Source: a virus
Lineage: Duplodnaviria; Heunggongvirae; Uroviricota; Caudoviricetes
IMG/VR virus record: IMGVR_UViG_2711768073_000011
DNA length: 11,213 bases
Reading direction: 5' to 3' (one strand)
Below the pieces are notes generated by a model that saw only the letters and a list, made by a program, of their open reading frames with translations, made no database searches and was not told the origin of the DNA. This document shows, piece by piece, positions 2,557 through 11,213 of the stretch; position 1 is the first letter of the stretch, and each line of letters begins with the position of its first letter. Made by a program: the position numbers and the translations under genes.

Positions 2557-2974
2557 TAACGAAGCACGCACGCTGAAAAACTGGCATCACGACACGGGGA
2601 AATACGGGCGAACCATTACCGGGTGGGATGAGGATAAAAACAATATCCGCACGTTTTACCGGGATGACATCGACCGTTTTCTGGAAATACGCACCCGGCG
2701 CATCAACCAGGACAGCACAAAGCGCGTCCCCATGTTCGTAAAACTGCGCACCGCCCGCTACCTGAAAGCCCGTGCAGATGCTTCCGGTGTGACGGTGGGT
2801 TACAGCGGCGTGGCCGCACGTATTGCCCGCGTTCATCAGTTCGGTGAGCGCGATCAGGTTGCGCCGGGCATTTTCACCGATTACCCGGTACGTGAGCTGC
2901 TGGGTATCAGCCAGGCAGATGAGCGCCTGATTTATAACACGGTGCTGGGCCGGATTGCGGAGGCTGTACGGTGA
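2557..2974 (+). CDS. S: S-like gene, 5'-truncated fragment (divergent middle copy)
   Basis: Resumes S in frame at the equivalent of position 1816 straight after the N gap and ends at the same GTGA junction. Four synonymous differences from copy 1 lie near its 3' end. Confidence 0.65.
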
Positions 2975-3552
2975 GCGCAGAACTCATGCGACTGCTGAGC
3001 AATATCATCCGCACCGGGATCATCTCTGAAGTTGATGAGAAGTCCTGGCGCGTGCGCGTTCGCAGCGGCGAACTGGAAACAGGCTGGTTGCGCTGGAACA
3101 CCACGCGCGCGGGAGCCTTCAATGTGTGGCTGCCGCCATCACCCGGCGAACAGGTGGTAATTGCCTGCATTGGCGGCAACCCGGAAACCGCCATGATAAT
3201 TGGCAGCCTGTGGAGTGATGCCAATCCGGCCCCCGGCAAAAGCCTGAAAGAAATCGTGGTCAGCGCGCCGGATGGCGCGGTGTTCCGCTACGACGCAGAC
3301 GCTGGCGCACTGAGCGCCAGCGGCATGAAAACAGCCACCCTGCAGGCATCCGTCAGCGTGACACTGGATACGCCCGTCGTGGAATGCACAAACCTTCTGA
3401 GAACAGCGACGCTTGACGTCACAAAAGGGGGAAAGATGAGCGGCAATATCACGCACAGCGGCGGCGATTTCACCTCAAACGGCATCACAGTGCATACGCA
3501 TAAGCACGGTGGCGTTAAAGGTGGCAGCGATTCGACAGGAGGCCCGCAGTGA
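2971..3552 (+). CDS. V: baseplate spike protein (P2 gpV-like), divergent middle copy
   Basis: 193-aa ORF with a GTG start. The C-terminal region is Gly/Ser/Thr-rich and carries the motif VHTHKHGG, the His-x-His pattern found at the apex of gpV-type spikes. Differs from the copy at 4066 by C27R, N/D and D/N substitutions. Confidence 0.85.
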   Translation: MSAELMRLLSNIIRTGIISEVDEKSWRVRVRSGELETGWLRWNTTRAGAFNVWLPPSPGEQVVIACIGGNPETAMIIGSLWSDANPAPGKSLKEIVVSAPDGAVFRYDADAGALSASGMKTATLQASVSVTLDTPVVECTNLLRTATLDVTKGGKMSGNITHSGGDFTSNGITVHTHKHGGVKGGSDSTGGPQ

Positions 3553-3899
3553 CAACCCGCTACACAGGAATGAACCCGGACGGAACGGGAAACCTGAACG
3601 ATATGGAGCACCTGAAACAGTCAGTCAGGGACATCCTGACCACCCCGCTGGCCAGCCGGGTTATGCGACGGGAATATGGCAGCCTTGTGCCTGATTTGAT
3701 TGACGAACCCATGAATAACACCACGCGTCTGCAATGCATGAGTGCTGCCGTGATTGCGCTGACACGATGGGAACCCCGCATTGCCCTGGACGCCATCGAC
3801 GTTGTCTGGAAGGCAGGAGGCCGCGCCGGGGTGACGCTGTCGGGCACTGTCATGCAGACCATGCAGAATGTTGAATTAACCATCACGCTGAGGGAGTAA
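3549..3899 (+). CDS. W: baseplate wedge protein (P2 gpW / GPW-gp25 family), divergent middle copy
   Basis: 116-aa ORF (MTTRYTGMNPDG...) with GTG start overlapping the V stop (GTGA). Size and position match P2 gpW. Confidence 0.85.
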   Translation: MTTRYTGMNPDGTGNLNDMEHLKQSVRDILTTPLASRVMRREYGSLVPDLIDEPMNNTTRLQCMSAAVIALTRWEPRIALDAIDVVWKAGGRAGVTLSGTVMQTMQNVELTITLRE

Positions 3900-3902
3900 A
3901 TC

Positions 3903-4009
3903 ATGCCTGCCGTTGACCTTTCACAGTTACCGGACCCCGCCATCATCGCGGAGCCTGACTTTGAGGCAATTCTGGCTGACACAAAGGCCATGATGATTGC
4001 GTCCTATCC
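3903..4009 (+). CDS. J: baseplate protein J (P2 gpJ-like), 5' fragment truncated by the N gap
   Basis: ATG at 3903 preceded by GAGGGAG; reads MPAVDLSQLPDPAIIAEPDFEAILADTKAMMIASY before the N run. Same as the start of the complete J at 4998. Confidence 0.65.
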
Positions 4010-4019
4010 NNNNNNNNNN
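4010..4019. other. assembly gap (10 N)
   Basis: Run of n characters lying exactly at the junction between duplicated blocks. Confidence 0.97.
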
Positions 4020-4069
4020 GCCTGATTTATAACACGGTGCTGGGCCGGATTGCGGAGGCTGTACGGTGA
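4020..4069 (+). CDS. S: S-like gene, 3'-terminal fragment after the gap
   Basis: Last 16 codons of S (...LIYNTVLGRIAEAVR*) in frame, ending in the GTGA overlap with V. Identical to copy 1. Confidence 0.5.
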
Positions 4070-4647
4070 GCGCAGAACTCATGCGACTGCTGAGCAACAT
4101 CATCCGCACTGGGATCATCTCTGAAGTTGATGAGAAGTCCTGGTGCGTGCGCGTTCGCAGCGGCGAACTGGAAACAGGCTGGTTGCGCTGGAACACCACG
4201 CGCGCGGGAGCCTTCAATGTGTGGCTGCCGCCATCACCCGGCGAACAGGTGGTAATTGCCTGCATTGGCGGCAACCCGGAAACCGCCATGATAATTGGCA
4301 GCCTGTGGAGTGATGCCAATCCGGCCCCCGGCAAAAGCCTGAAAGAAATCGTGGTCAGCGCGCCGGATGGCGCGGTGTTCCGCTACGACGCGGACGCAGG
4401 CGCACTGAGCGCCAGCGGCATGAAAACGGCCACCCTGCAGGCATCCGTCAGTGTGACACTGGACACGCCCGTCGTGGAATGCACAGACCTTCTGAGAACG
4501 GCGACGCTTGACGTCACAAAAGGGGGAAAGATGAGCGGCAATATCACGCACAGCGGCGGCAATTTCACCTCAAACGGCATCACAGTGCATACGCATAAAC
4601 ACGGTGGCGTTAAAGGTGGCAGCGATTCGACAGGAGGCCCGCAGTGA
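4066..4647 (+). CDS. V: baseplate spike protein (P2 gpV-like)
   Basis: 193-aa ORF with GTG start. Its first 105 codons are identical to copy 1 at 2230. Carries the same VHTHKHGG apex motif. Confidence 0.88.
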   Translation: MSAELMRLLSNIIRTGIISEVDEKSWCVRVRSGELETGWLRWNTTRAGAFNVWLPPSPGEQVVIACIGGNPETAMIIGSLWSDANPAPGKSLKEIVVSAPDGAVFRYDADAGALSASGMKTATLQASVSVTLDTPVVECTDLLRTATLDVTKGGKMSGNITHSGGNFTSNGITVHTHKHGGVKGGSDSTGGPQ

Positions 4648-4994
4648 CAACCCGCTACACAGGAATGAACCCGGACGGAACGGGAAACCTGAACGATATG
4701 GAGCATCTGAAACAGTCAGTCAGGGACATCCTGACCACCCCGCTGGCAAGCCGGGTTATGCGACGGGAATATGGCAGCCTTGTGCCCGATTTAATTGACG
4801 AACCCATGAATAACACCACTCGTCTGCAATGCATGAGTGCTGCCGTGATTGCGCTGACACGATGGGAACCCCGCATTGCCCTGGACGCCATCGACGTTGT
4901 CTGGAAGGCAGGAGGCCGCGCCGGGGTGACGCTGTCGGGCACTGTCATGCAGACCATGCAGAATGTTGAATTAACCATCACGCTGAGGGAGTAA
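4644..4994 (+). CDS. W: baseplate wedge protein (P2 gpW / GPW-gp25 family)
   Basis: 116-aa ORF with GTGA overlap to V. The protein is the same as the middle copy; differences are synonymous. Confidence 0.88.
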   Translation: MTTRYTGMNPDGTGNLNDMEHLKQSVRDILTTPLASRVMRREYGSLVPDLIDEPMNNTTRLQCMSAAVIALTRWEPRIALDAIDVVWKAGGRAGVTLSGTVMQTMQNVELTITLRE

Positions 4995-4997
4995 ATC

Positions 4998-5894
4998 ATG
5001 CCTGCCGTTGACCTTTCACAGTTACCGGACCCCGCCATCATCGCGGAGCCTGACTTTGAGGCAATTCTGGCTGACACAAAGGCCATGATGATTGCGTCCT
5101 ATCCCGCCGAACAGCGTGAAGCCGTTTCCGCCGCGCTGGAGCTGGAATCGGAACCCCTTAACGTTATCGCTCAAACCATGTCGTTTCGTGAAATGCTGTT
5201 ACGCCAGCGGGTCAATGAGGGTGCACGCGCCTGCATGCTAAGCCACAGCGCCGGGACAGACCTGGACAACCTCGCGGGCAATATGAACACAAAGCGCCTG
5301 GTTATCACTCCGGCAACGGATACCACCGACGCAGTGATTGAAAGTGACACCTCGCTGAGACTACGGGCGCAACGGGCATATGACGGTCTGAGTGTTGCTG
5401 GCCCGTCAGGTGCATACGAGTATTTTGCACGCAGCGCCAGCGGTCTGGTACGCGATGCGCGGGCCATCAGCCCGTCTCCGGCCAACGTGACGGTTTCCAT
5501 CCTGTCCACTGAGGGCGACGGCACAGCAACGGAGGCGTTGCTTAATACCGTTCGCGCCGTTCTGAATGCAGAGGATACCCGCCCGGTGGCCGACCGCCTG
5601 ACCGTACAGAGCGCCAGCATCGTGACATGGCGGCTGAATGCAAAACTGTACTTTTACCCCGGTCCGGAATCCGAACCTATTCTGGCCGCGGCGGAATCGT
5701 CATTCAGGAAGTGGCTGGCTGAACAGGGGCTTATCGGTCAGGACGTGGCGTTGTCCGCCATTGCTGCCGCACTTCATGTACACGGCGTGCAACGCGTGGA
5801 GATAATCGAACCCACACAGAATATGGCCATCAGCGACATACAGGCGGCGCGCTGTGAGTCATTCACCATCAGCGAAGGTGGGCGTAATGAGTAA
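4998..5894 (+). CDS. J: baseplate assembly protein J (P2 gpJ-like)
   Basis: 298-aa ORF with a GAGGGAG Shine-Dalgarno. Size and position after W match P2 gpJ. Its stop overlaps the start of I. Confidence 0.9.
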   Translation: MPAVDLSQLPDPAIIAEPDFEAILADTKAMMIASYPAEQREAVSAALELESEPLNVIAQTMSFREMLLRQRVNEGARACMLSHSAGTDLDNLAGNMNTKRLVITPATDTTDAVIESDTSLRLRAQRAYDGLSVAGPSGAYEYFARSASGLVRDARAISPSPANVTVSILSTEGDGTATEALLNTVRAVLNAEDTRPVADRLTVQSASIVTWRLNAKLYFYPGPESEPILAAAESSFRKWLAEQGLIGQDVALSAIAAALHVHGVQRVEIIEPTQNMAISDIQAARCESFTISEGGRNE

Positions 5895-6417
5895 TTCACT
5901 GTTACCGCCATCAGCCAGCAATTTCATGCGTTGTGCCGAAGCTGTCGGAACGCGCATTACAGACATCCCGGTAGACCTCAACACGCTGTGGTCGCCGGAC
6001 ACCTGCCCGGTGCACCTGCTGCCTTATCTCGCCTGGGCATTTTCCGTTGACCGCTGGGATCGCAACTGGCCGGAAGAGACAAAACGACAGGTGATTCGTG
6101 ATGCATGGCTGATACACCGACACAAGGGAACCATCAGCGCACTGCGCCGGGCCATTGAGCCGCTGGGATACCTCATTCGTGTGTCTGAGTGGTGGGAGTT
6201 CGGCGGAGAACCGGGAACATTTACCGTTGAAGTGGGCACGCTGGACAGTGGCGTGACGGAGGAAATGTATCTGGAAATGGAGCGGTTGATTGCTGATGCC
6301 CGCCCGGTCAGCCGCCACATGACAGGGCTGAATATCATTCAGGAGATTCCGGGGGATATTTTCGCGGCGGCAGCAACTTACGACGGTGAAGTCATTACCA
6401 TTTATCCGGACGATTAA
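5887..6417 (+). CDS. I: tail / baseplate protein I (P2 gpI-like)
   Basis: ATG at 5887 (MSNSLLPPSASNF...) overlapping the J stop, giving 176 aa. The ORF track's longer form from 5854 is an upstream extension inside J. Confidence 0.85.
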   Translation: MSNSLLPPSASNFMRCAEAVGTRITDIPVDLNTLWSPDTCPVHLLPYLAWAFSVDRWDRNWPEETKRQVIRDAWLIHRHKGTISALRRAIEPLGYLIRVSEWWEFGGEPGTFTVEVGTLDSGVTEEMYLEMERLIADARPVSRHMTGLNIIQEIPGDIFAAAATYDGEVITIYPDD

Positions 6418-6419
6418 GC

Positions 6420-9011
6420 ATGAGTACCACAACACGAAAATTTAAAACCGTTATCACCGATACGGGTGCAAAAAAATTAGCTCAGGCAGCCGCGCCAGAT
6501 GGTAAGCCTGTCCGCCTGACTCATATGGCCGTGGGCGACGGTGGCGGCACGTTGCCCACACCAGACAGTAAGCAGACCCGTCTGGTGCATGAGGTGTGGC
6601 GACATACTGTTAATCGCGTCATCCTGGACGCAACACATCAGAACCGCATTATTGCGGAGCTGGTTATTCCTCCTGAAACGGGCGGATTCTGGATCCGGGA
6701 AATTGGTGTATTTGATGAGCACGGCGATTTGATCGCGGTGGGCAATACTGCGGAAAGTTACAAGCCAGCCGTTGCCGAAGGATCCGGACGTGTACAAACA
6801 TTTCGCACCATTCTGACCGTATCCAGCACTGCCACCGTGGCGCTTACCGTGGATAACACCATGGTTATGGCCACAGTGGATTACGTGAATGACAAACTGA
6901 AAGAACATGAACAGTCACGACGTCACCCGGACGCCTCGCTGACCGCAAAAGGCTTTGTTCAACTCAGTAGCGCCACCAACAGCACGTCTGAAACACTGGC
7001 CGCAACGCCGAAAGCGGTAAAGGCCGCGTATGACCTTGCTAACGGGAAATATACCGCACAGGACGCCACCATAGCGCGAAAAGGCCTTGTCCAGCTCAGT
7101 AGTGCCACCAACAGCACGTCTGAAACGCTCGCCGCAACGCCGAAAGCGGTAAAGGCAGCATATGACCTTGCTAACGGGAAATACACTGCACAGGACGCCA
7201 CCACAACGCGAAAAGGCCTTGTCCAGCTCAGTAGTGCCACCAACAGTGATTCTGAAACGCTTGCGGCAACGCCAAAGGCGGTAAAGGCAGCATATGACCT
7301 TGCTAACGGGAAATACACTGCACAGGACGCCACCACAGCGCGAAAAGGTCTTGTCCAGCTCAGTAGCGCCACCAACAGCACGTCTGAAGCATTGGCCGCA
7401 ACACCGAAAGCGGTAAAGGCCGCGTATGACCTTGCTAACGGGAAATACACTGCACAGGACGCCACCACAGCGCGAAAAGGTCTTGTCCAGCTCAGTAGCG
7501 TCACCAACAGCGATTCTGAAACGCTTGCGGCAACGCCAAAGGCGGTAAAGGCCGCGTATAACCTTGCTAACGGGAAATACACTGCACAGGATGCCACTAC
7601 AGCGCGAAAAGGTCTTGTCCAGCTCAGTAGCGCCACCAACAGTGATTCTGAAACGCTGGCCGCAACATCAAAAGCGGTGAAGTCTGCCTATGACAATGCT
7701 GAAAAACGTCTTCAGAAAGATCAGAACGGTGCGGATATTCCGGGAAAGGATACCTTCACGAAAAATATCGGTGCCTGTCGTGCTTATAGCGGCGCTTTGA
7801 GCACTGAAGCCGGAAACTGGACAACCGCTCAGTTTATTGAATGGCTGGATTCCCGTGGTGCATTTAATCATCCGTACTGGATGTGCAAAGGCTCATGGTC
7901 ATATGCAAATAACAAAATCATTACGGATACCGGATGTGGTGATATCCACCTGGCTGGTTGTGTCGTCGAGGTCATGGGAACTAAATCTGCAATCACTATC
8001 CGAGTAACCACGCCGACAACATCAAGTGGTGGCGGTACAACCAGCGCACAATTCACTTACATTAATCATGGGGACGGCTACTCCCCCGGCTGGCGTCGTG
8101 ACTGGAATCGTCAGGGCGACTCAATGACCGGAACGATTAATCAGGATGGCGGAAGCCAGAATGCCTATATGTCTACGGCCTTATGTTCAGGCACCAGAGG
8201 CGGCAAAAAATATCTCAGAAAGTTTCGTGGTGGAGAAGGAGATACTATCTGGCATGAAACAGTACAGGGCGGGGTAATTCGCTGGGCGACAGGAAACTAT
8301 GACGCTCAGGAAGAATTATCACTCAGCTCCGCTTATGGTCTCCGTTCAAGAGGTGAGATTACATCACTCAGTGCTAATGGTCTGCGCATTGCTTATGGCA
8401 ATTATGGATTCTTTATCAGGAATGATGGCGGCAGCACATATTTAATGCTGACGGCCTCTGGCGATAAATTTGGGACATGGAACGGCTTAAGACCGCTGAC
8501 TATCAATAACGCCAATGGCGGAGTGTCAATGGGGCATGGCCTGAGTGTTACAGGTGATATTGTCTCAAGTACCAAAGTACGTGCCGGTAGCGGGAAAAAG
8601 TTCACGGTCAGCAGCAGCAATACATCAACGAAGGAAGCCGCATTCAATTTGTGGGGAAACGCAAGTCGTCCTGTGGTGGCTGAATTAGGTGATGATGCAG
8701 GCTGGCATTTTTACAGTCAGAGAAATACAGATAACAGCATCACTTTTGCTGTTAACGGGCAGGTATCACCATCTAACTATGGCAACTTTGATTCACGCTA
8801 TGTCCGGGATATTAGACTTGGTGGCGCGTCATCCTATAAACCAGCAAATAACGGTACAACATGGACGCATCAGGCTCCATCTGGTTGCGTATATACCGGG
8901 ATTATCGTTCAGGATACAGGCTCAAACTCTGCCGATAATATTGGTGGTGTTTATTACAGACCAATTCAAAAAAATATTAATGGTACATGGTATAACGTAT
9001 CGAGTGTTTGA
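6420..9011 (+). CDS. H: tail fibre protein (P2 gpH-like) with an internal tandem repeat array
   Basis: 863-aa ORF. The N-terminal ~170 aa (MSTTTRKFKTVITDTGAKKLAQAAAP...HMAVGDGGG...IIAELVIPPE...EHEQSRRHPDASLTAKGF) matches what I recall of the conserved gpH N-terminal domain. It is followed by six 44-aa repeats and a Gly/Asn/Ser/Thr-rich distal region. Confidence 0.9.
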   Translation: MSTTTRKFKTVITDTGAKKLAQAAAPDGKPVRLTHMAVGDGGGTLPTPDSKQTRLVHEVWRHTVNRVILDATHQNRIIAELVIPPETGGFWIREIGVFDEHGDLIAVGNTAESYKPAVAEGSGRVQTFRTILTVSSTATVALTVDNTMVMATVDYVNDKLKEHEQSRRHPDASLTAKGFVQLSSATNSTSETLAATPKAVKAAYDLANGKYTAQDATIARKGLVQLSSATNSTSETLAATPKAVKAAYDLANGKYTAQDATTTRKGLVQLSSATNSDSETLAATPKAVKAAYDLANGKYTAQDATTARKGLVQLSSATNSTSEALAATPKAVKAAYDLANGKYTAQDATTARKGLVQLSSVTNSDSETLAATPKAVKAAYNLANGKYTAQDATTARKGLVQLSSATNSDSETLAATSKAVKSAYDNAEKRLQKDQNGADIPGKDTFTKNIGACRAYSGALSTEAGNWTTAQFIEWLDSRGAFNHPYWMCKGSWSYANNKIITDTGCGDIHLAGCVVEVMGTKSAITIRVTTPTTSSGGGTTSAQFTYINHGDGYSPGWRRDWNRQGDSMTGTINQDGGSQNAYMSTALCSGTRGGKKYLRKFRGGEGDTIWHETVQGGVIRWATGNYDAQEELSLSSAYGLRSRGEITSLSANGLRIAYGNYGFFIRNDGGSTYLMLTASGDKFGTWNGLRPLTINNANGGVSMGHGLSVTGDIVSSTKVRAGSGKKFTVSSSNTSTKEAAFNLWGNASRPVVAELGDDAGWHFYSQRNTDNSITFAVNGQVSPSNYGNFDSRYVRDIRLGGASSYKPANNGTTWTHQAPSGCVYTGIIVQDTGSNSADNIGGVYYRPIQKNINGTWYNVSSV
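6948..7700 (+). repeat. six tandem in-frame 132-bp repeats (44-aa KGLVQLSSATNS[TD]SETLAATPKAVKAAYDLANGKYTAQDATTAR units) inside H
   Basis: Unit starts at 6948, 7080, 7212, 7344, 7476 and 7608; the last unit decays after about 30 codons. The units are near-identical at protein level with scattered nucleotide differences. They resemble the short repeat motif known from phage tail fibres. Confidence 0.9.
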
Positions 9012-9013
9012 TT

Positions 9014-9547
9014 ATGATGCATTTAAAAAATATAAAACCGGGCAATCCAAAAACAAAAGAACAGTACCTGTTAACTAAAAACTCCGGCGTTGTCTGGTTA
9101 TTCGCTGAAGATGGTAAAAACTGGTATGAGGAACAAAAGAACTTTCAGCCAGACACCATAAAGATTGCATATGATGAAAATAATGTCATATGCGACGTGC
9201 AAACGGATGTAACTGCAATTTGCCCGGAAGGAAAAAGTGTTGTCGAGTTGCCTAATATTACAGCAAACCGACGCGCTGATATTTCAGGTAACTGGATGTT
9301 TAAAGATGGCTCAGTCATTAAACGTGTGTATACCGAAGAAGAGCAACGCTTGCAGGCTGAAAACCAGAAACAAAGGTTATTACAGCAGGCCAGAGAAAAA
9401 ACGCAGTTCTGGCAGACCCAGCTTGCATTAGGGATTATCAGTGATTCAGATAAGCAACAACTGATGCGCTGGATGCGGTACGTGCAACAAGTTGAGACCA
9501 CTGATACCACTGAATTACCCGTTACGTTCCCTGATCAACCAGAATAA
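9014..9547 (+). CDS. G: tail fibre assembly protein / chaperone (P2 gpG / Tfa family)
   Basis: ORF directly after H; the ATG at 9014 (or 9017) lies just after the H stop at 9009-9011, and the ORF track's TTG at 9008 is less likely. About 177 aa. The position and the Q/E-rich C-terminal part (QFWQTQLALGIISDSDKQQLMRWMRYVQQVE) are typical of Tfa proteins. Confidence 0.8.
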   Translation: MMHLKNIKPGNPKTKEQYLLTKNSGVVWLFAEDGKNWYEEQKNFQPDTIKIAYDENNVICDVQTDVTAICPEGKSVVELPNITANRRADISGNWMFKDGSVIKRVYTEEEQRLQAENQKQRLLQQAREKTQFWQTQLALGIISDSDKQQLMRWMRYVQQVETTDTTELPVTFPDQPE

Positions 9548-9551
9548 ACGA

Positions 9552-9590
9552 AAGGCCCGAATATCGGGCCTTATCGTTATTTCTGTTTAT
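9552..9590 (+). terminator. rho-independent terminator after G (possibly bidirectional)
   Basis: Stem aaggcccg (9552-9559) / cgggcctt (9565-9572) with loop aatat, followed by the T-rich tract atcgttatttctgtttat. It sits in the 68-bp gap between the convergent G and U genes. Confidence 0.6.
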
Positions 9591-9615
9591 CTAACTATTT
9601 GTGATTTGCGTTAAA

Positions 9616-10110
9616 TCAGAACAGTCCCTTAACAGAACTGACCGCACTGTTAAGGGATGACGCCACCTTATCTTTGAAGCCGGACAGCATATCGCTGAAC
9701 GATGAGGATTGCAGGCGCTCCCGCAAATCCTCATCACAGCGTTCAAGGGTCAGTGAAAATTCTATCTTTTTCGCCTTACCGTAGCGATCAAACTCGGAAC
9801 GGGTCGTATTCGTTCCGGTCAGGACATACATGCCGTAAATCTGCCCGACGCCATCAATCAGAGGCCAGGGGCGTCCTGTATACGCCTGCGTGGTCAGCAG
9901 CGACAGCGACACTTCGCCACCTGTAATTTCAGGATAAAGCACACCAGAAAGAACGATGCGATCATCACCTGCACCGATATACTGCCATCTTGCTGAACGG
10001 TTAACGCGTTCATTTTTTACATGCCGCCAGCTTTTGTTTTGCTGTAACTGCTGATGCGGCAATGTGCGCAGCTCAAAAACAAACATGCCGTAGATCATCA
10101 TCATGGCCAT
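9616..10110 (-). CDS. U: tail protein U (P2 gpU-like)
   Basis: 164-aa ORF on the - strand (MAMMMIYGMFVFELRTLPHQQ...GVLYPEITGG...WPLIDGVGQIYGMYV...KIEFSLTLERCDE). Motifs and size match my recollection of gpU, and it lies immediately after the tape measure gene on the same strand. Confidence 0.8.
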   Translation of the reverse strand: MAMMMIYGMFVFELRTLPHQQLQQNKSWRHVKNERVNRSARWQYIGAGDDRIVLSGVLYPEITGGEVSLSLLTTQAYTGRPWPLIDGVGQIYGMYVLTGTNTTRSEFDRYGKAKKIEFSLTLERCDEDLRERLQSSSFSDMLSGFKDKVASSLNSAVSSVKGLF

Positions 10111-10116
10111 GACTCC

Positions 10117-11213
10117 TCAATCTTTATCGTAAAAACTGCCACGCCCGGCACGGGTACGCCGATCCAGTTCTGCCCTGACCATTTCACCGACCAGTTTCGC
10201 CAGTTCGCGGGGATTCTGCGTAACAACGTTATGCAGATGAACATGAATTTCACCGCAAAATCCGGAGACAGCAGGCTCCCGGTTACGGGAAGTTGCAGGA
10301 ACTGATGCCACTGGCGATCGTATGGCCTCCGCCACCGGGCGGGAGCTGGCCGCAACAACAGGGACCAGCGCCGGAGGCAGCGGAGCCGGGACCACAGGTG
10401 TGATGTTGATTGCGGAAGCAGGCTTACTGACCTGCGCAATCTTCCGCTCCTGCCACTCCCCACGAACAGCAAGTGCGCGGGGCAGGTTCTTAAAGACAAT
10501 ATCGCCAGGGCCAATGCGTTTTTTCGTCTCATCAACCAGCTTACCTGTGTTATCAGCAATTTTGCTGAGTCTGCGTAGCGTCCCGGTATTGCTGTCTGTG
10601 AGCGGTTTGTTGTCTTTGGGTTTATCACCTCCGGTGCCATTGCCATTTTCCACAGGCTTCGGCGGATTGATTTTCGCAAGGTCCCCCTGAAGCAAGGCAA
10701 CCTTGTCCTGAAGAATGGCCGCACGCTGTGCGTCTTCGATTTTCTTGCGCGCCTTTTCCGCTTCATCCGGAAGGACGCCAAGTTTTTCAAGTATCCACGC
10801 CAGCGTATCCAGTAGCATTTTTGCAGGTGTCAGAACAAGTTGTAACGCACCGCCAAGAACGTTACCGAATATCTCGCCAGCACTGGTACATTTATCCAGC
10901 GTTTCCTTGCTGGACTCCATCGGTGACAGCAGCGATTTAAACCAGTTAAACACCTGGCTGATCCCGCTTCCGATTGCGTCAAAAACAGGACCAAACCGTT
11001 CAAAGGTTTCGCGCAACGGGGTCAGCCTTTCCATAATCCCGCTGAACACCCCGACAAAAAATGCCCTGATGGGATCCCAGTATTTCCAGATAAGAACGGC
11101 AGCTCCGGCAAGCGCAGCCACGATAAGACCAACCGGACTGATCAGCGCCCCGATAGCGCCTCCCAGTAAAGAAACGGAACCCGTCACCATTCCCCATAGT
11201 GCTGGCAGGACCC
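10117..11213 (-). CDS. T: tail tape measure protein (P2 gpT-like), C-terminal part; 5' end outside the window
   Basis: The - strand reading frame is open to the window edge; the ORF track's Met at 11190 is internal. It contains a hydrophobic stretch (GAIGALISPVGLIVAALAGAAVLIW) and charged, probably coiled regions typical of tape measure proteins, and lies directly upstream of U. Confidence 0.75.
   Translation of the reverse strand, partial: VLPALWGMVTGSVSLLGGAIGALISPVGLIVAALAGAAVLIWKYWDPIRAFFVGVFSGIMERLTPLRETFERFGPVFDAIGSGISQVFNWFKSLLSPMESSKETLDKCTSAGEIFGNVLGGALQLVLTPAKMLLDTLAWILEKLGVLPDEAEKARKKIEDAQRAAILQDKVALLQGDLAKINPPKPVENGNGTGGDKPKDNKPLTDSNTGTLRRLSKIADNTGKLVDETKKRIGPGDIVFKNLPRALAVRGEWQERKIAQVSKPASAINITPVVPAPLPPALVPVVAASSRPVAEAIRSPVASVPATSRNREPAVSGFCGEIHVHLHNVVTQNPRELAKLVGEMVRAELDRRTRAGRGSFYDKD

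Follow-up and report, generated by a model that had tools for sequence, protein, structure and literature searches.

The 11,213-nt stretch of DNA analysed here (hereafter the window) represents the late, tail-encoding part of a P88-like (Xuanwuvirus, Peduoviridae) E. coli prophage with the normal gene order of its genus, a reading to which we give a probability of about 93%. The feature singled out in the initial annotation, the tail gene U converging on the fibre assembly gene G across a short spacer, is standard in P88-like phages and is therefore ordinary, a sign neither of mis-assembly nor of decay. Both the genus and its usual gene order are already known, the exact junction is annotated in RefSeq genomes, and no new mechanism is involved.

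Compared with P88 (KP063541 / NC_026014), the DNA was 98.7% identical at positions 1-2545, 98.0% at 2557-4009, 95.4% at 4020-7288 and 96.9% at 9605-11213, values that describe this 11.2-kb window only. Gene by gene, R, S, V, W, J, I, the N-terminal part of H, U and T are 95-99% identical to P88 in DNA, and the only divergent part is the C-terminal part of H together with G, at 69-74% identity. On the strength of this identity outside the H C-terminus and G (95-98.7%), we assign the window to a Xuanwuvirus-type late region. In megablast searches of phage genomes the T-U part matched P88-like phages at 93.6-97.1% identity (P88, Citrobacter phage phiSM, P884B11, 503458, 520873, 500465-2, PhiR44_2 and Chuche). 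The closest match was a prophage of E. coli CH468 (NZ_CM166354, 3.63-3.66 Mb), with 98.5-99.7% identity over four aligned blocks, and the host of the prophage is almost certainly E. coli.

Genes at the G-U junction

G (9014-9547, + strand) encodes the tail-fibre assembly chaperone and closes the late operon on the + strand. It lies directly after the fibre gene, and its product matched Pfam PF02413 (Caudo_TAP) at 115.4 bits (cutoff 22.1, E = 2.5e-33) as well as PHROG 136 and is 58.5% identical in amino acids to P2 G. The longest open reading frame begins at a TTG at 9008 and overlaps the end of H, and the annotated G equivalent of CH468 maps to 9014-9547. Across a spacer of 68 bp (9548-9615) the tail gene U, terminal in the inverted FI-U operon, is read from the opposite strand (9616-10110, - strand; Pfam PF06995, Phage_P2_GpU, 132 bits against a cutoff of 27.5, E = 1.1e-38; PHROG 76). 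U has 46% amino acid identity to P2 U and 97% nucleotide identity to P88 U, and its probable start is 10104, which matches the RefSeq-style start in the near-identical CH468 prophage.

Upstream of U, also on the - strand and convergent with G, lies the 3' part of the tape measure gene T (10117-11213; PHROG 17114 and PHROG 28). Its frame is stop-free and runs off the end of the window, so that the C-terminal 365 of about 935 codons, 39% of T, are inside. This part showed 97% DNA identity to P88 T and 41% amino acid identity to residues 590-723 of P2 T, and the 2808-nt T of CH468 maps to the same positions, 10117-11213. Open reading frames, Pfam and PHROG thus agree with the gene calls first made on this DNA, with G ending at 9547 and, 68 bp on, the 3' end of U on the opposite strand with T upstream of it.

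The genes E, FII, FI and D are outside the window. Searches with tblastn, using D of both P88 and P2, the P88 invertase and, from P2, Fun(Z), FI, FII and E as queries, gave no homologue in the window of D, the invertase, Fun(Z), FI, FII or E (all E >= 1). With both D queries negative, it holds that no D sits between U and G.

Gene order in P88-like phages

In the annotation of P88, R S V W J I H G lie on the + strand, followed by G' and H' (-), the DNA invertase (+), U T E' E FII FI (-) and D (+). The operon for baseplate and fibre thus faces an inverted FI-U block with U as its terminal gene, just as G faces U and the 3' part of T in the window; D and ogr lie past FI in P88. The inverted FI-U orientation was found in all eight phage genomes examined (P88, phiSM, 500465-2, P884B11, 503458, 520873, PhiR44_2 and Chuche) and also in eight sampled complete E. 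coli chromosomes. The T-U module had been described as inverted relative to the baseplate and fibre operon, with U as the last gene, and this was seen in the window, in P88 and in all relatives examined. Of the explanations offered for it, a lineage with a different module order is the one borne out, since P88 and every relative examined carry U-T-E'-E-FII-FI opposite to V-W-J-I-H-G.

The initial annotation had taken phage P2 as its reference, and the P2 order given there agrees with the annotation of NC_001895. In P2, G is followed by fun(Z) on the opposite strand and then by FI FII E E' T U D ogr on the G strand, and Fels-2 (NC_010463) has the P2 order with an invertase cassette between G and FI. 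Both phages share with the window homologous tail genes and a slot directly after G, holding fun(Z) in P2 and a cassette with invertase in Fels-2. They differ from it in having FI to ogr on the G strand with D last in the F operon, whereas in the window U and the 3' part of T are inverted and D would lie apart from U. Given the single-stranded order in P2 and Fels-2, the inverted block is exactly FI to U with D and ogr left in place, and it follows that U is terminal and that no D lies between U and G. The absence of D from this interval is thus expected, because D never belonged to the inverted block. Fels-2 and SopE-phi had been candidates for sharing the inverted tail block, and this was ruled out for Fels-2 by its P2 order.

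Compared with P2 and Fels-2, Xuanwuvirus therefore has FI-FII-E-E'-T-U turned round, with D and ogr unchanged in position and orientation. Transcription of the FI-U operon (sheath, tube and tape measure) consequently runs head-on against that of the baseplate/fibre operon (R S V W J I H G), the two ending at the G-U interval, and D lies past FI, transcribed divergently from it and outside the window. In CH468 the genes past T are E, E', FII and FI (-), then D and Ogr (+), and D adjoins FI in divergent orientation (FI ends at locus position 26192, D starts at 26350). By comparison with this prophage, D of the present element would be expected about 5 kb past the end of the window, beside FI and divergently transcribed. 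Late promoters may lie in the FI-D interval; in the 157-bp interval of CH468, compared by eye with the P2 pF activator site, we noted TTGT..TGTCG-like motifs and no convincing match to an Ogr-type late-promoter dyad.

The same convergent order is present in intact, active phages. P88 is described as inducible and plaque-forming (PMC5285337), phiSM is an active temperate phage (PMC6456863), and the activity of both makes the convergent arrangement compatible with a working virion. It also occurs in PhiR44_2 (PV340564), an isolated phage with E. coli C as recorded host, in which G is directly convergent on U, no invertase is present and D lies past FI; PhiR44_2 differs from the window in another G allele and in a 253-bp scar as spacer. 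In the passages of PMC5285337 that describe P88 biology we saw neither the inverted module nor the invertase discussed. In the very common P88-like prophages it is normal for FI-U to be inverted without D, and this should not be flagged as decay or mis-assembly; the P2 order is not a valid synteny template for all Peduoviridae prophages and is a poor one for the P88-like group.

The fibre gene and the variable G-U slot

Between G and U, P88 carries about 2.4 kb (the H'/G' cassette, crossover sites and invertase) as compared with 68 bp in the window. The G-U interval is the variable accessory slot of the genus, occupied in P88 by the H'/G' cassette and a Din-family invertase, both absent here. 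An invertible fibre cassette with a serine invertase fills the slot in P88, phiSM, P884B11, 503458, 520873 and 500465-2 and in four sampled chromosomes. In P88 the cassette is flanked by crossover cores at P88 locus positions 8245 and 11316. The crossover core AAACCNNGGTTT, allowing up to one mismatch, gave no hit in the window and two correctly placed hits in P88; tblastn with the P88 invertase found none in the window (best E = 4), and neither inverted repeats nor a second G homologue were detected there. Thus, of a Din-family invertible segment (Gin/Cin/Hin type), the window has no invertase, no crossover sites and no H'/G' cassette.

Other occupants of the slot were found in relatives. In O157:H7 86-24, a degraded prophage, it holds a serine O-acetyltransferase on the U strand (locus 3272-3844), and in phage Chuche a glycosyltransferase, also on the U strand (locus 31-765); this cargo is of the lysogenic-conversion type. 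In PhiR44_2 the 253-bp spacer (locus 4759-5011) is a clear deletion scar, in which roughly 170 nt from the 3' end of G' run straight into the final approximately 60 nt of the invertase gene. The slot of E275a retains only a C-terminal fragment of the invertase.

Among 5426 complete E. coli genomes the U allele was covered over at least 80% of its length in 1315, the P88-type invertase-U junction was present in 622, and the junction of the window in 28. The empty slot is thus a minority yet recurrent state of a known variable slot. The earlier statement that the accessory slot is empty is true of this DNA, but emptiness is one among several common states. Knowledge that this slot can hold a fibre cassette, acetyl- or glycosyltransferase cargo, or nothing, is useful when annotating morons.

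The fibre gene H (6420-9011, + strand; 863 aa) matched Pfam Phage_tail_fib and Phage_fiber_2 and PHROG 381. At 6815-7774 a 132-bp (44-aa) unit is repeated six times, in tandem and in register. In CH468, H is shorter (731 vs 863 aa) by three of these repeats, which could reflect either natural differences in repeat number or faulty assembly. The C-terminal part of H is a fixed cassette without an invertase crossover site, and it is to the inverted H'/G' cassette of P88 that the H C-terminus and G are 69-74% identical. Judged from these alignments, the receptor-binding tip looks like an invertible cassette fixed in one orientation. The C-terminal part of H and G (7713-9573), whose closest counterparts are invertible-cassette versions elsewhere, were also 79-85% identical to hin-adjacent cassettes of the Mu-like Yersinia phages vB_YpM_3 and vB_YpM_41.

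Alignments divide the spacer (9548-9615) in two. Positions from about 9548 to 9587 group with the fibre module, and from about 9588 the sequence is homologous to the P88 sequence between the invertase stop codon and U; the homology thus restarts about 5 nt past the invertase stop, and the blast homology break was placed at 9605. The first part contains a hairpin (9552-9572) with a GC-rich 9-bp stem, including six GC pairs, and with T-rich tails on both strands, located between the convergent genes. It scored as a terminator on both strands in a terminator scan, and its predicted folding energy was -20.7 kcal/mol (z -5.8). Alignments show it to be a homologue of the inter-cassette (G/G') hairpin in the invertible segments of P88, 503458 and a Mu-like Yersinia phage. 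We predict that it acts as a bidirectional intrinsic terminator, which most likely ends transcription of both convergent late operons. The single fixed H-G fibre module would in that case end in a hairpin that stops transcription from both directions. No Rfam family matched anywhere in the window at the gathering threshold. No hidden cargo was found in the spacer; the sole open reading frame touching it is a 51-aa frame (9591-9746) that lies mostly within U.

A possible origin of the empty slot, with somewhat less than an even chance of being correct, is secondary loss: a deletion in a P88-type ancestor would have removed G', H' and the invertase and left the fibre locked in one form, and this is compatible with the junction being a normal feature of the lineage. 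Replacement of the fibre module by recombination at the module borders would look alike, and what tips the balance towards deletion is that both the hairpin and the H C-terminus with G are homologous to invertible cassettes, the former to the inter-cassette hairpin and the latter to P88 H'/G'. The resumption of P88 homology almost directly past the invertase stop also points to deletion, as do the deletion scars in relatives, a G'-invertase fusion in PhiR44_2 and the invertase C-terminal fragment in E275a. Against it, the window contains no invertase fragment and H no crossover core. The approximately 15 nt past the hairpin (TTATTTCTGTTTATC) loosely resemble the reverse-complemented 3' end of G', but this T-rich putative relic is indistinguishable from chance or from a terminator tail. 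A relic of the invertase system within the spacer was considered separately and rejected, as there is neither a crossover core nor an invertase fragment and the putative G' relic is too short to judge.

Secondary loss may have occurred more than once. Rather tentatively, we suggest that the empty slot is a recurrent 'locked' P88-like form, in which several independent losses of cassette and invertase fixed the host range and the inter-cassette hairpin was reused as a shared terminator. Such cases may be seen in the clean junction of the window, in Z142-6 with its 41-bp version, in the PhiR44_2 scar and in what E275a retains of the invertase. The Z142-6 junction (locus 9549-9589) is about 27-30 nt shorter than that of the window and has a degenerate hairpin.

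Prophage decay as a possible explanation, and scaffold gaps

The initial annotation had also raised the possibility of a decaying prophage, in which an inversion and/or deletion took D and the cargo from a defective element. Damaged relatives do exist, as the O157:H7 86-24 prophage has IS damage and a frameshifted T, ETEC-2264 carries an IS100 within T and E275a is without G, but in the window all readable genes are intact, scaffold gaps aside. Moreover, the inversion is genus-wide and found in phages described as active (PMC5285337, PMC6456863), and D lies directly past FI in the near-identical CH468 and Z142-6 prophages. In CH468 the junction (G, 68 bp, U; 99.9% identity over 9000-10200) is part of a full prophage set comprising portal, terminase, capsid, lysis, R to G, U to FI, D and Ogr, and Z142-6 has the same architecture with its 41-bp spacer and a full gene set including D beyond FI. 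Complete gene sets around this junction contradict decay as its cause, and we consider decay very improbable. As the window includes 39% of T but none of the genes E, FII, FI and D, we infer from its near-identical relatives that this particular prophage is complete, and by the same comparison it would probably be viable.

The initial annotation had mentioned other assembly problems, and these were confirmed, all of them far from the junction. Runs of N occur only at 2546-2556 and 4010-4019, and each is flanked by a duplication: 1816-2545 recurs at 2557-3286 (730 bp; 100% identity over the reported 300-nt repeat) and 2925-4009 at 4020-5104 (1085 bp; about 99% over the reported 300-nt repeat). 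The duplications make S, V, W and the beginning of J appear more than once. These genes are present as single copies in CH468 and P88, the former having neither scaffold gaps nor duplications, so the flanks of the N runs are overlapping contig ends at scaffold gaps and not real duplications.

These defects show that contigs of this scaffold were joined across gaps, but a mis-join of two prophage-derived contigs at 9548-9615 is effectively excluded, as no N runs or duplications were found near these positions, the same junction is present in complete genomes and window positions 7343-11213 form one ungapped, colinear block with the CH468 chromosome (99.15% identity). The junction region (9000-10200) was fully covered in 28 of the 5426 complete E. 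coli genomes, with 92-99.9% identity among the matches listed (25 of the 28) and at least 99.8% in three or more genomes.

Two further observations concern the deposited relatives. An IS100 element (IS21 family) interrupts FI in phages 503458 and 520873 (locus approximately 9667-11560) and T in the ETEC-2264 chromosome (locus 4625-6426), and some P88-like elements in the databases are therefore defective. In the record of Citrobacter phage Shae_phiSM (OR565851) the FI-position (sheath) gene bears the name 'late control gene D protein' and the D-position gene the name 'ogr/Delta-like zinc finger', so that, from gene position, this annotation looks to be shifted by one gene.
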